Part shown: in pieces, positions 2,583 through 62,257 of the stretch
How positions within the stretch are numbered: the first letter of the stretch is position 1
Layout of the letters: each line of letters opens with the position of its first letter
Assembly (NCBI GenBank): GCA_951406725.2
Contig: OX597839.1
Location: 28,396,001 to 28,460,000 of the forward strand
Direction: 5' to 3'
From: Octopus vulgaris
Lineage: Eukaryota
DNA length: 64,000 nt
Made by a program: the position numbers and the translations under genes
Notes under the pieces: model-generated
What the model was told of the DNA's origin: nothing
The model's input: only the letters and a program-made list of their open reading frames with translations
Databases searched by the model: none

Positions 2583-2628
2583 GACACCTGAAGAAGGCTG
2601 GAGAGTAAATCAGCCGAAACATTGTGTT
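2583..2628 (+). ncRNA. Minimal type I hammerhead ribozyme motif (family H1) in a short interspersed element at ~2525-2710
   Basis: gacac-CTGAAGA-a-GGCTG..CAGCC-GAAA-catt-gtgtt; stem I gacac/gtgtt, stem II GGCTG/CAGCC; homologous copies at 16959 (-) and 17214 (+). Confidence 0.65.
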
Positions 2629-3654
2629 AACAATAAACAAGATGAGGACAAATGTCCATCAAATGTAAATAATGTACATAATTCTTCATCTCTTAAATAA
2701 ATATAGAATTGTAAAAGAAATAGGAGGAGCAATCCTGACAGAAATGCCTGTATTGAGTCTGTTTATATGCTGGATATGTGTGTGGAGATACTTGCTCAAG
2801 ATGGTAAGCAGTAGCATCAAACAAGGTCCCTCGTTAATGCGAAGCGAACTTTTATACCCTTCAGCTATTAAACACACACACACACACACACACACATACA
2901 GACATACATACACATATGCATACACACACATACACACACAGATACATACACATGCATACACACATACACATTCACAAAAACATGCACATACATACAAACA
3001 AATGTACACTCATACATACACATTCACAATACGCACACACTCACTCTCACACACATGCATCCACATACACACACATACACACACACATGCATGCATGTAC
3101 ATACACAATCACAAGCACGTACACACACACAAATGCAAATACATACAAACAAATGCACACACACACAATCTCACAAACACATACACACACATACACAAAC
3201 GCACATTCACACAAACATACACACACACACAAACTCAAATACACATACACACACAAACACACTCACAGACTCACACACACACAAACACACACACACATAC
3301 TCACAAACTCAAACTTACACACACACACACACACACACACACATACACAAAGCAAATTAAGATAAAATTTTCCTGAAAATCTTTTGTTTATTTTTAAAGA
3401 GGAATTCCTTGTTTCCTTCCCCCCACCCTGCACTTTTTTGATTTTTTTTTTGTTTTTGCTTCCATTTTGAGCTCTCAGAATGTCTTCCCTCTGAACAAAT
3501 CCTGGAGATTGATTCCAGTTTTCTTTGAGAAAAGTGTAAAAGACTTCCTCCCACATGAACCATTAATGGAAGCATTGTTTAGGAAGAACAGGTTTCAGAC
3601 ATTGAAGTTGTGATAACAACTTACAATGGGAAGCAGACATATTTGTCATCGCTT

Positions 3655-4850
3655 CCAGCACCACCAACGCCATCATCGCCAATAATTCCAACAGCACCAC
3701 CACCACCAACAACAATAACAGCCATCGGCACCTCTAATACCATCACCACTACCACCAACACCACCACCACCAACAACAACCATCGGCACCACTGATACCA
3801 TCACCACCACCACTACCACCAACAACCATCAGTACCTCTAATACCATCACCACTACCACCAACACCACCACCACCAACACCACCACCACCACCACCACCA
3901 CCACCACCATCGGCACCATCACCACCACCACTACCACCAACAACAACCATCAGTACCTCTAATACCATCACCGCAACCATCTCCAACACCACCGACACCA
4001 CCACCACTACCATCAGCACTTCTGATGCCACCACCGACACCACCATCATCACCATTAACAACGCCATCGCCACTGCCAACTCCAACACCACGCCACCACC
4101 AACACCACCGCCACCTCCTGTATCAACAACAACAACATCACCACCAGCACCACCGCCTCTGCCACAAATACCACCACCAGCACCACCAAACCAAACCTGT
4201 CAACTAACAGTCATCATCACCATCATCATCGCATTAATAAGAGGAGGAGGAGGAGGGGGAGGAGGAGGAAATAATCCGAATAAATCAAAGTCAGAATGGT
4301 AAAAAAAAGAAAAAGCAAAAAAAAAAAAATAACAAACAAGAAAAAAAGATGATGAAAGCCAAAAGAAATTTAAAATAAAAAAATATAAATATCTATAACA
4401 AGAAAAACGTAAAACAAAAGAAAATAAGCGAAAATTGTTTGGAATAAGAAGTAATTGTGGTCGGAGGGGGGTTAGGAGATAAATCAACCTAATTTCACCA
4501 TCACCCAGCCCGTCCCACCTGCCCGATCATCATCATCATCAGCATCATCATCATTGCCACTATCAATATCATCTTTATCAGCACTGTGGTCATCGACCTC
4601 GCCACCACCACCACCACCACCACTAACAACAACAACAACAACAAAACCACTGGCATTACCCCCACCACCTGTCATCATCACCATCCATTATCTTCATCGG
4701 CACCACCACCACCACCATCATCATCACCACCATCACCATAAACATTATCATTGCTGTCATCATCATCATCATTACCATCACTACCATCATCACCACCACC
4801 ACCACCATCATCATCAACATCACCACCAACACCATTATCATTGTTGTCAC
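3655..4850. repeat. Compound (CAC/CAA/CAT)n trinucleotide repeats
   Basis: Direct reading; a (GTA/GCA/GTG)n field also lies at ~10305-10990. Confidence 0.9.
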
Positions 4851-5370
4851 CATCTGGCAAAAATTCAAAGGGGCCTGTAATTCAAAGGGGCTAGCCTTTT
4901 TATATTCTGTGTCATGCTGAATCTCCCCGAGAGCTGCATTAGGGTTATGCATGTCTGTGGAGTACTCAGCCACTTGTATGTAATTTCATGAGCACTTGTA
5001 TGTAATTTCATGTTCTGTTGATTGGATCAACTGGAACCCTCATTGCCCTAACCAACAAAACACCAGTTTATTTCATGTTGCTCCTGTCCCCTAATTTGGC
5101 AAAAATGGGTTTTACCAGTAATTCAAAGGGGGCCAGCCTTGTCACATTCTGCATCATGTCGAATCACCCTGAGAACTACATTAAGGATACATGTGTCTAT
5201 GGAATACTCATCCACATACATGTTCATTTTACAAGCAGGTTGTTTGGTTGATCAGACCAACAGGGACCCCCATTTTCGTAACCGAAGTGCACAGCTAGCA
5301 AAAATGAGTTATACCCGTAATTCAAAAGGGGCCAGCCTTCTCACATTCTGTGTCACACTGAATCTCTCTG

Positions 5371-5775
5371 AGCAGGAGTGGCTGAGTGGTAAGTCGCTTG
5401 CTTACGAACGACATGGTTCTGGGTTCAGTCCCACTGCGTGGCACCTTGGGCAAGTGTCTTCTACTATAGCCTCGGGCCAACCAAAGCCTTGTGAGTGGAT
5501 TTGGTAGACGGAAACTGAAAGAAGCCCGTCATATATATGTATATATATATATGTGTGTCTGTGTTTGTGTGTCTGTGTTTGTCCCCCTAGCATTGCTTGA
5601 CAACCGATGCTGGTGTGTTTATGTCCCCATTACTTAGCGGTTTGGCAAAAGAGACCGATTGAATAAGTACTGGGCTTCCAAAAGAATAAGTCCTGGGGTC
5701 AACTTGCTCGATTAAAGGCGGTGCTCCAGCATGGCCGCAGTCAAATGACTGAAACAAGTAAAAGAGTAAAAGAGT
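5371..5775 (+). mobile_element. tRNA-derived SINE family A (internal TA/TG microsatellite, AAAAGAGT tail)
   Basis: A box TGGCTGAGTGG, B box GGTTCAGTCC; copies at ~6279-6685, 11685-12630, 17675-18080(-), 20618-21010(-), 38700-39050, 46730-47445(-), 56030-56417(-), 60425-60540. Confidence 0.85.
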
Positions 5776-59566: not shown

Positions 59567-59982
59567 TATACATAAATTATTAGAGAGTTATCCACTATGT
59601 GGATTACTCTAGTGCTAAAAATAGCTCCGAAGCAACCACAGAAAATCAGTTTCCAACTAGAGTTTGTCAGAAATGCAATTAATTAGATCGATTCGGGCGT
59701 CAAAAACACGAGCGGTCCAACCAATTACATTTTTAGTTTTTAGTTATGTCTCAAATTCCGCGCCAAAAGCATGCCTTAGACTCCATTGGAAACGTATGCC
59801 GCATCAAATAAAATATTGACTGCCGCGTAGACGCCCGAATCGATCTAATTAATTGCATTTCTGACAAACTCTACCGAAGATTTATGGATGCAAATGTAAC
59901 TGATTTTCTGTGGTTGCTTCGGAGCTATTTTTAGCACTAGAGTAATCCACATAGTGGATAACTCTCTAATAATTTATGTATA
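59567..59982. repeat. Inverted repeat element in (TA)n
   Basis: Arms ~59567-59701 and ~59830-59982 near-identical apart from one indel block; ~130-nt spacer. Confidence 0.85.
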
Positions 59983-61872
59983 TATATATATATATATATA
60001 TGCTGTGATTGCGAAGACCCAAGAAATAACGTGAGTTCATGGGTTCATAGCTGTTTCTTGCACCAGCTTCGCATAGCAGCCCCAGGCCATCCAAAGTACC
60101 TTGGATCGCAGGATGGTCTGCTGCAGCTTGTGGAGACCTACTGAGTCAAGTACACCAACATCAAAATAAAAATCAAATCCAAAAAATCGCAGGAAATGGT
60201 CTGCTGTGCTTGTGGAGACCTACTGAGTCATGTACACCAACATCAAAATAAAAATCAAATGGAAATTGTAGTTGTGATACCTGTGCCAGGTATATATATA
60301 TATATATATATATATATATATATATATATATATATATATATACATAGATATATATATATATACATACATATATATATACATATACATACATACATACATG
60401 CATTATGATGGAATAGTTAATATAGGCGCAGGAGTGACTGTGTGGTAAGTAGCTTGCTTACCAACCACATGGTTCCAGGTTCAGTCCCACTGCGTGGCAC
60501 TGTGGGCAAGTGTTCTAGTATAGCCTCGGGCCAACCAAACCTATGTATAATCAGAAAAACCAGTATTTATTTAGTTGCTGCCCTTGCATGAAATTGTTGA
60601 TCTTCTGTTTTTGTTGATGATGATGATGACGATAATGTGGATGATGACAATAATTAGGATTATGATGATGATGATAATGTTTTGTTACTTCTCTCTCTTT
60701 TTCTCCCATTCACTCTTTCTCTCTCTCTCACTCCTTAATATCTATTGGGTATCTTTCATCCCTTGAGTTTTGTATATTAGCATTTGAAAGAAAGGGTCTG
60801 AAACTCTCCGCTGTCCTTCACCAAACCCCACTATTCTGCTGACCAACATACTAGTGCGCTGCTTCCAAACAATCACCCAGCCTGCTAGAAATAGCAGCTG
60901 AAACTCTCCCTTTAAAAAAACAAAACAAATGAAATTTAAACTACACTGCATCTAATTCTTGTGGCTTCGGAGTATTTTTTACTCCTATTTTTAGCAAAGC
61001 TGGTGCTTCTTATTGCCCTTGTTATATATATATATATCACATGATCACGTGACCAACCAGTCCATCAGATGTAGTTACACATCGCTGGTCACAATGCATT
61101 CGCATTGTTTTAGCCTTCGAATGACGCCACCCCGCTGGCTAAGCGAGCAGGCCAACAGAAGAAAGAGTGGTGAAAGAGTACAGCAGGGATCACCACCCCC
61201 TGCCGGAGCCTCGTGGAGCTTTTAGGTGTTTTTGCTCAATAAACACTCACAACGCCCGGTCTGGGAATCGAAACCGCGATCCTATGACCGTAAGTCTGCT
61301 GCCCTATCCACAAAGCCATTGCGCCTCCACATATATATATATATATACATACATACATACATACATACATACATACATACATACATATATATATATATAA
61401 ATATACATACACACATACATATATATATATATAAATATACATACATACATACATATATATATAAGAGAGAGGGTACGTACGCCATATATATATATATATA
61501 TATATATATATATATATATGAATAATAAGGGTGGCTAATTTGCAATTTTACAACCTAAAGGTAGAAATATATCCATCACTATAGTCACTGAGGGCACTAA
61601 TCAGCACCTGTATTGCTAGAAATAAGAGTCAAAGCAACTCATAGCCCCAAGAAGCACTCATCTTAATAACAGACAAAAGAGGAAAGCTCCCTCAGCGCCT
61701 AGGCATAGCCAGATCACAGTGCTTGTACATTTATATTATATATATATATATATATATATATATATATATATATAGTTAATCCAAACAAGAAAACACAGAA
61801 AAAAACACAGCAACGCGAGGACGTGGAACAATTAAATGTATTATTTAACGCTCAGGAAAGAAGGGAAGGAGG

Positions 61873-61907
61873 GTTTAACGTTTCGAGCGGAGCTCTTCGT
61901 CGGAAAC
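61873..61907 (-). ncRNA. Minimal hammerhead motif (core variant CCGACGA) in a (TA)n-flanked element at ~61775-61982
   Basis: Reverse strand reads gttt-CCGACGA-a-GAGC tcc GCTC-GAAA-CG-TT-aaac; palindromic stem III ACGT. Confidence 0.6.
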
Positions 61908-62209
61908 AAGGAGAAGGAAAGATCCCAAGAAGGGAAGACAGAGGAAAAAAATATTTTTGCTGGTGGTGCTCAAGAGATCACATATATATATAGGTTATAA
62001 GAGGTCATGGTGTCAGTCAGACCTGAAGGTGTCAGGTAATGCTGAGTAAGTGGTATGGATAGACCATAGTTAAGCTCCAGATTCAGTGATTATGCAAATA
62101 AGGAGTCCAACGTAGGTCATATATCAGCATGTGTATACATAAAAAAAATTTTTCAGAATGAGATAAAAAGCCAAGGCTGTGAAGATTTTAGAACATTTAT
62201 AAATAGAAG

Positions 62210-62257
62210 GTCTTACAGCTATTTCCAGAATATTTATTATATTCCTTCACTGGAGAC
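62210..62257 (-). ncRNA. Decayed hammerhead-like motif
   Basis: Reverse strand reads gtct-CCAGTGA-a-GGAATAT aataa ATATTCt-g-GAAA-tagctg-TA-agac; stems intact, core degenerate. Confidence 0.35.

Follow-up and report, generated by a model that had tools for sequence, protein, structure and literature searches.

Among the systems described so far, one of the closest to that considered here is the one in Cervera and de la Pena 2014 (PMC4209133), whose available sections report thousands of minimal hammerheads per genome, grouped in several families and 'probably related to truncated PLEs' (Penelope-like elements), the motifs being mostly single, in some cases paired on opposite strands 100-700 nt apart, and bearing an extra base after position 9 and a palindromic stem III. 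The stretch analysed here, a 64-kb segment of the Octopus vulgaris genome (contig OX597839.1, 28396001-28460000, hereafter the window; assembly of 2.80 Gb in 227 contigs), carries short copies of diverse families with a minimal type I hammerhead layout, and these motifs are very probably hammerheads in the terminal repeats (pLTRs) of Penelope-like elements, left behind as short 5'-truncated, often mirror-image insertions. As in the hammerheads of PMC4209133, to judge from the same sections, stem I is short, stem II long or variable and stem III palindromic, and the elements are truncated, whereas several of the octopus families differ from that set in having fixed core changes. Hammerheads at truncated Penelope ends are a known arrangement, and the pattern of diverse families seen in the window is already in the available part of PMC4209133; the main result adds the octopus to the list and, for four families, corrects 'non-autonomous', the term of the original prediction made from the bare letters of this DNA, to 'truncated'.

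For the Poseidon element of the anole (Frangieh et al. 2024, PMC11167929), the text available describes a protein that cuts both strands of AT-rich DNA and a reverse transcription that begins at two internal sites; hammerhead mutants do not block insertion there, the hammerhead cleaves only with the protein, and uncleaved RNA is the main template. For the Neptune, Nematis and Hydra clades, the corresponding part of Craig 2021 (PMC8557442) describes inverted truncated copies, tails and microsatellite targets. Hammerheads also occur in the Schistosoma Sm-alpha and Sj-alpha elements, similar to short interspersed nuclear elements (SINEs), which combine a polymerase III promoter with the ribozyme and form tandem non-coding repeats, according to the accessible portion of a review (PMC6765202) that treats tRNA-derived heads and Penelope elements separately, and in animal non-LTR retrozymes, made of head-to-tail units with a hammerhead in each (PMC7229834; bioRxiv 10.64898/2026.07.22.740005; both available in part). 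As for the octopus itself, the part seen of the O. vulgaris repeat annotation (PMC13282606) counts 190 Penelope-like families covering 6.83% of the genome (31 recently active) along with 893 SINE families left unclassified; neither 'hammerhead' nor 'ribozyme' appears in its main text as far as this was available, the window families are probably among those annotated, and no report joining hammerhead, Penelope and octopus was found in the literature searched.

Sixteen hammerhead layouts in eight families

The window holds 16 minimal type I hammerhead layouts belonging to eight sequence families (A-H), and in all 16 the order is stem I, core, stem II, GAAA, stem III, NUH and stem I'. The original prediction had counted 15 motifs of at least seven types: all 11 positions that it gave as examples bear the layout it described, its estimate of the types holds, and its total was off by one. 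Microsatellites and interspersed repeats are abundant in the window, and the copies that carry the motifs are the following:

2528..2700, + strand: fragment of the family A pLTR (Poseidon-like), hammerhead 2583-2628, stem III decayed to ACAU
8078..8627, - strand: family B inverted arm with 3' untranslated region (UTR), pLTR and an extra 57-nt tail, hammerhead 8254-8297
8753..9244, + strand: family B direct arm with (TA)n at its end, hammerhead 9083-9126, core CUGAUGC
13086..13271, + strand: family C end whose stem II is long, hammerhead 13114-13199
16900..17053, - strand: family A inverted arm, hammerhead 16959-17004
17054..17165, no strand: centre of the family A palindrome, both arms bearing the (AAT)n that belongs to the element
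17166..17338, + strand: family A direct arm and tail, hammerhead 17214-17259, core CUGUUGA, a private change
26090..26400, - strand: family D 3' end with (TA)n at its end, hammerhead 26187-26224, core CUGUUGA, the family consensus
38103..38275, - strand: family C inverted arm, hammerhead 38176-38261
38277..38423, + strand: family C direct arm, hammerhead 38301-38386
40464..40585, - strand: diverged relative of family C, hammerhead 40498-40585, stem III ACGAUCGU
46984..47063, - strand: family E inverted arm, hammerhead 47014-47053
47070..47217, + strand: family E direct arm with (TA)n at its end, hammerhead 47075-47115, stem III ACUCAGAGU
48279..48491, - strand: family F inverted arm, hammerhead 48338-48442
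48496..48699, + strand: family F direct arm, hammerhead 48549-48644, stem III ACAAUUGU
61775..61980, - strand: family G 3' end with (TA)n at its end, hammerhead 61872-61908, core CCGACGA, the family consensus
62083..62270, - strand: decayed family H copy, hammerhead remnant 62209-62257

That such layouts are chance matches in AT-rich repetitive DNA would agree with the failure of a strict canonical descriptor to find any of the 16 motifs, which comes about because every window copy deviates somewhere from the textbook hammerhead, and with the Rfam check suggested in the original prediction, in which no hammerhead family scored, either among the 150 matches listed of 392 in the window or among the 8 matches on 16920-17300. 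A relaxed descriptor (tolerating a single change in the core, one additional base after position 9 and a stem III that is imperfect; score of at least 6), on the other hand, recovered 8 of the 16, against a mean of 0.03 and a maximum of 1 in 60 local dinucleotide shuffles, so that the motif frequency lies well above shuffled sequence, the other comparison that the prediction had proposed; the remaining 8 motifs were placed via family homology and by eye. Twenty random 10-kb stretches of the genome (200 kb) gave 8 matches, 7 of them in one tandem array, while 10 shuffles gave 0, and dispersed motifs are more frequent in the window than in these stretches. Moreover, 24 sequence-distinct clusters of the same layout occur in 1.87 Mb of selected loci, and 10 of 23 distant Penelope relatives from metagenomes carry the same motif downstream of the open reading frame (ORF). 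Taken against these counts, an origin by chance has a negligible probability and is regarded as refuted.

Parent elements and the form of the insertions

The genome contains thousands of GIY-YIG candidates as well as intact ORFs of 781 amino acids, and it was searched with seven of the eight families (all but H), the best 40 candidates being scored per search. These searches identify the motifs of families A, B, D and G as truncated 3' terminal repeats of autonomous Penelope-like elements: in all four families a reverse transcriptase (RT) plus a C-terminal GIY-YIG domain lie in one ORF contiguous with the repeat. Both the proposed link between minimal type I hammerheads and Penelope terminal repeats and the existence of RT/GIY-YIG partners sharing the repeat are thereby borne out for these four, for which the description as 'non-autonomous' has to be given up. 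The loci examined for C, E, F and H contained no coding partner.

In family B, same-strand coding sequence for a Penelope thumb or GIY-YIG domain lies within 1.5 kb upstream in 13 of 30 loci, and two loci (L265 and L266) hold frames of 1265 and 1199 amino acids between pLTRs, with a hammerhead identical to that of the window. The window arm at 8753..9244 matches copies on other contigs, full-length elements included, at 100% identity over 281 nt, and its core CUGAUGC is common to all young family B copies. The ORF, whose protein has no Pfam match, was identified by motifs and tblastn, and its linker reads CX4CxxC; the protein (L265:2862-6790) would have ~1330 residues if the frame near its end is continuous, with an Asn-rich stretch of ~300 residues before the RT. 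Same-strand Penelope coding sequence is found within the same distance in 8 of 30 family D loci, and in L267-L269 RT and GIY-YIG lie upstream of the repeat. For family G none of 30 loci has such sequence within 1.5 kb, and it was a 10-kb fetch that revealed, at L271, the succession of RT, GIY-YIG, a CA-rich UTR 2.5 kb long and a pLTR in tandem; this locus and L270 share >3 kb. The D and G parents have a CxxxxCxxC linker (Neptune-type). They resemble the clades of PMC8557442, as far as its available text allows, in the CX2-5CxxC linker, which B matches with CX4CxxC, and in (TA)n targets, all clades here being assigned by motif alone.

Family A, which is Poseidon-like, was traced via the sequence upstream of the repeat to the end of the GIY-YIG domain; of 30 loci selected by the end of the ORF, 28 extend into the tRNA-like segment described below (the head) and/or the pLTR. 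One near full-length, decayed locus (L401) has no Cys linker and matches the relative P0019 over residues 41-844. The pLTR codes for the first ~50 residues of the protein, hammerhead included, as it does in P0019; the window copies have 45-51% identity to P0019 residues 18-59, and the fragment at 2528..2700 coincides in part with the codons at the N-terminal end of the ORF, so that the label 'non-coding' fails for this family. In lacking a Cys linker, in the overlap of hammerhead and ORF start and in ends fixed inside the ORF start, family A resembles Anolis carolinensis Poseidon as the accessible part of PMC11167929 presents it.

Across the genome the copies have a fixed 3' end and a variable 5' end, and mirror pairs occur in the window for families A, B, C, E and F. 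Family B has two 3' ends 57 nt apart, the 57-nt tail being present on one arm only of the window pair; such an optional tail is clearest in this family and is also found in A, C and F. At the fixed 3' end (TA)n is present in 28 of 29 copies of B, 26 of 29 of D, 29 of 29 of E and 27 of 29 of G, is mixed in C and F, and is absent from 11 of 11 copies of A. The original placement of the motifs inside (TA)n or (ATT)n is therefore right for (TA)n in B, D, E and G, partly so in C and F, and wrong for (AAT)n, which belongs to the family A element itself. That (TA)n flanks the families with Cys-linker parents (D, G) and not the one without a linker (A) is as the available text of Craig 2021 (PMC8557442) describes. 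Mirror-image copies, more than one 3' end and flanking (TA)n are usual marks of Penelope elements, and the tails and truncated inverted copies seen here match those of PMC8557442.

A scheme modelled on the anole element would accommodate these features: the protein would nick AT-rich DNA on both strands, reverse transcription would set in downstream of the hammerhead, at one fixed site or at two, early stops would leave ends of 100-500 nt, and priming from both strands would yield head-to-head pairs. Two internal start sites, as the accessible text of PMC11167929 reports them, explain the optional tail. We read the motifs as pLTR passengers in apparently abortive insertions. Inverted repeats as long as those in the window might alternatively be taken for miniature inverted-repeat transposable elements (MITEs) or foldback DNA transposons, with the hammerhead likeness incidental; that the arm lengths differ, that the centre varies between copies, that single-arm copies are common and that the same arms lie at the 3' end of RT/GIY-YIG elements makes this highly improbable overall and refutes it for A, B, D and G.

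Two sets of results weigh against this reading of the motifs. The first concerns coding partners. Family C has none in 30 loci at 1.5 kb or in 12 at ~3.5 kb (42 in all), family E none in 30 and a further 8 (38), family F none in 30 and a further 12 (42), and family H none in seven loci met incidentally beyond the window's own, no genome search having been made for H; furthermore, family E copies share at most ~360 nt upstream. These families, or some of them, could instead be truly non-autonomous, retrozyme- or SINE-like, and borrow Penelope proteins, as the lack of a linked ORF, the start of most family E copies at or within the hammerhead, a four-unit tandem of a family E fragment with a period of ~180 nt and a separate hammerhead tandem array of 353-359-nt units in one of the random stretches would suggest. 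On the other side, C and F extend 600-700 nt upstream in a nested manner and without a common start, as long AT-rich 3' UTRs predict; a young Nematis-type element of this genome has a UTR of ~2.1 kb before its hammerhead; the family G ORF was itself reached only by the 10-kb fetch; C and F are older (84-93% and 81-90% identity to the window copy, respectively), for which reason long copies would be rarer; and the tandem units of E have neither stem I nor core, while none of the 16 window motifs stands in a head-to-tail array. A non-autonomous nature is thus unlikely, and C, E, F and H are likely to be truncated Penelope ends as well. The window motifs share with non-LTR retrozymes the type I hammerhead and pLTR-related sequence and differ from them in the absence of head-to-tail arrays (0/16), as far as the available parts of the retrozyme papers go. 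With no tandem hammerhead units, and with the E units lacking the core, a retrozyme identity was rejected for the window motifs.

Some loci met in these searches deserve a separate record. The family E tandem lies at L278 (C5, 129.824 Mb), its four ~180-nt units coming from the 3' part of the family, and L075 holds three near-identical units of 594 nt in tandem, with a tail like that of family C at the end. The array in a random stretch (L043:2272-4550; C1, ~20.002-20.005 Mb) has seven units, five in direct and two in inverted orientation, and every one of them contains a canonical hammerhead (core CUGACGA, stem III ACCGGU); it belongs to a family not in the window and looks like a true retrozyme-type array. 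An ORF between two family F copies (L276) is not the F partner and belongs to another, Nematis-type family, and an ORF fragment near a family E copy (L518) was likewise rejected as a partner, a SINE and (TA)n standing in between. The Nematis-type family with the ~2.1-kb UTR (L407:2662-8200, L408) is very young, has 960-residue frames and carries a hammerhead with stem III ACAGCUGU, the one that decayed family H appears to have had; its domain type gave 15,847 first-look candidates, with 150 matches listed. The 781-residue family that dominates the GIY-YIG search is young and Neptune-type, with intact frames and an overlapping upstream frame of ~330 residues (L063-L066, L082 and many other matches), and in 20 loci its end is shared with no window family.

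The second set concerns the ribozyme itself. The family A consensus has a canonical core, whereas the young families B, D and G have one fixed core change each, which by hammerhead numbering we take to be A9C, A6U and U4C, respectively. Read by eye, the extra base after position 9 and the G10.1-C11.1 pair are present in A, B, D and G, while in C, E and F a mismatch or A-U replaces this pair beside the core. The fixed changes and the lost closing pair of stem II could mean that some of the hammerheads are inactive. Core-variant hammerheads are reportedly, going by its title, the subject of Lunse et al. 2017. Stem III is short and self-complementary in A, D and G (ACGU), in F and in E, whose ACUCAGAGU would form a self-duplex at -7.4 kcal/mol; it is near-palindromic in C, and in B two base pairs enclose AA. 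For five near-consensus copies the minimum-energy fold was not that of a hammerhead (z -2.1 to +0.3), and such predicted single-copy folding supports neither the presence nor the absence of cleavage.

Nor do the 5' ends of the copies peak at the predicted cleavage site: 2 of 133 arms begin there in family A, both sharing microhomology with the head leader, and 1 of 85 in family E, and no copy begins exactly there in B, C, D, F or G. The absence of a peak neither supports nor excludes cleavage in vivo. Nearly all copies extend across the site, and hence the template was uncleaved or re-ligated there; for family A the lack of an excess at this point fits the uncleaved template of Poseidon in the available part of PMC11167929. 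Any cleavage would presumably be weak, or depend on dimers or on help from protein. Being young, with intact or nearly intact frames and fixed core changes, families B, D and G offer natural variants for the question of whether a Penelope hammerhead must cleave. A 37-nt family A fragment at 21053-21089 of the window starts 3 nt past the predicted cleavage site, with an inverted piece of the same repeat adjoining.

The tRNA-like head of family A

In family A, a tRNA-like segment of 73 nt, the head, follows ~25 nt past the stop codon and precedes (AAT)n and then the pLTR. In the consensus the A box is found at position 8 and the B box at 53, the spacing of a tRNA. The exact pattern is found in 7 of 30 decayed family A copies and in none of 20 other octopus PLE loci or 23 metagenome relatives. 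The head is known from outside the window, where the three family A copies hold at most ~10 nt of it: in the palindrome centre ~10 nt of its 3' end are left at 17143-17154, the remaining head not being in the window. Dong/R4-like (as we type them) and other LINEs (long interspersed nuclear elements) have inserted in the family A (AAT)n and parted head from pLTR (L282:1350-5000, L006, L325 and others).

Among 40 loci picked by the pLTR alone and classified by eye (L003-L005 being one duplicated locus), 24 start within ~5 nt of the head, 9 stop inside it, 3 reach the ORF, and 4 end in (AAT)n or are unclear, so that of the 27 copies extending as far as the head start, 24 go no further. When the head itself was used to select loci, 24 of 30 had a pLTR at most 1.5 kb downstream, and in 28 the copy began no more than a few bases from the head. 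Head-starting and ORF-linked copies share one consensus (28 + 28 heads and 22 + 29 pLTRs), positions selected by the query aside, and the former look like products of the autonomous element that are SINE-like in form, not like a separate lineage.

Judged on this sequence pattern, there is about an even chance that the family A element acquired within its terminal repeat a polymerase III promoter of tRNA origin and thereby gave rise to SINE-like copies of itself, which would make up ~60% of the family. This would turn on polymerase III initiating upstream of the head, at a distance of a few bases, within tandem or full-length elements, a step with slightly better than even prospects; the parent's protein would then copy the short RNAs into SINE-like units of ~250-300 nt. 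Three observations count against a promoter of this kind. The exact box pattern is kept in no more than the 7 of 30 decayed copies given above; the head is not scored as a tRNA by Rfam (one locus) or by ARAGORN (0 in 12 loci); and its best match among 30 genomic tRNAs, tRNA-Arg(TCG), is weak, at 48 of 73 positions, with the next at 45. A comparison of the head with phage records gave no match.

The peak of starts at the head might also arise if reverse transcription of a long element RNA stopped or snapped back at a hairpin of leader and head start. These two do form a short palindrome, on which ~11 head-starting loci are centred as fold-back palindromes; the common consensus of head-starting and ORF-linked copies would be expected, and family E breakpoints also lie at self-complementary sites. 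Such stopping agrees less well with the 24 of 27 copies that end at this one point after passing stronger 3' hairpins (stem II and the tRNA-like arms), with 9 stops in ~70 nt, or with the many copies that join unrelated flank or a short inverted arm there. About half of the copies keep leader bases upstream of the head, where the start site of a tRNA-type polymerase III transcript would fall, and the exact tRNA positions of the A and B boxes (8 and 53) and the lack of a run of four T (T4) in head or pLTR are further points against it. Snap-back is accordingly a possibility of some weight that we hold somewhat less probable than polymerase III initiation.

The absence of T4 from head and pLTR is compatible with polymerase III transcription and no more than that. 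No T4 run is common to family A copies, which have 11 private runs in 27.6 kb aligned, and the 2645-nt copy at L401 has 0, compared with 4-19 in seven other Penelope ORF stretches. This deficit is borderline and concerns one copy (P 0.037 with dinucleotide, 0.037 with mononucleotide and 0.098 with codon shuffles), and it is absent in two other family A copies. The boldest form of the promoter reading, in which the whole 2.6-kb family A coding element would be a polymerase III transcript, is accordingly quite improbable on the sequence evidence.

The likeness of family A to Sm-alpha and Sj-alpha lies in a tRNA-type promoter-like segment followed by a hammerhead, and the difference in that this segment is fixed in an autonomous element and that the short copies bear Penelope insertion marks, as far as the available part of PMC6765202 permits comparison. 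From Poseidon as described in the accessible text of PMC11167929, family A is set apart by the A/B-box segment and (AAT)n between stop codon and pLTR. The tRNA-like segment is a variant that was not found described, and no tRNA-derived head in a Penelope element was found, in the literature searched, which had most subscription journals, Repbase and Dfam outside its scope. If the promoter reading is true, family A would show a SINE-like unit emerging from within the autonomous element that serves it as partner, in this instance a Penelope-like element; how Penelope elements are transcribed could be tested directly on this family. tRNA-derived SINEs of octopus are said to have been reported by Ohshima and Okada in 1994.

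Host gene and other features of the window

The motifs had been placed in septin introns. The host gene lies outside the elements and is represented as follows:

6053..22058, + strand: eight reading frames with septin GTPase-domain exons (Pfam PF00735)

The frames are 6053-6295, 10104-10238, 11130-11294, 13313-13597, 15624-15866, 18880-19176, 19502-19690 and 21852-22058; the exons reach to about 22.04 kb, with one more septin exon-like frame 5.8 kb ahead of the window. Past 22.06 kb nothing in the window was recognised as a septin exon, and a heuristic search for C-terminal septin exons gave none either. An intronic position is thus upheld for 6 of the 16 motifs (2583 to 17214), the other 10 being unplaced relative to the gene.

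Minisatellites occupy 19811-20225 (23 x 18 nt), 24915-25322 (9 x 40 nt) and 27005-27634 (2 x 310 nt). Decayed transposon fragments are present at 2016-2327, presumably a Mutator-like transposase piece, at 31063-31767, which we take to resemble the 3' end of a restriction-endonuclease-type LINE, and at 58648-59040, a mariner piece with a weak match to PF17906.

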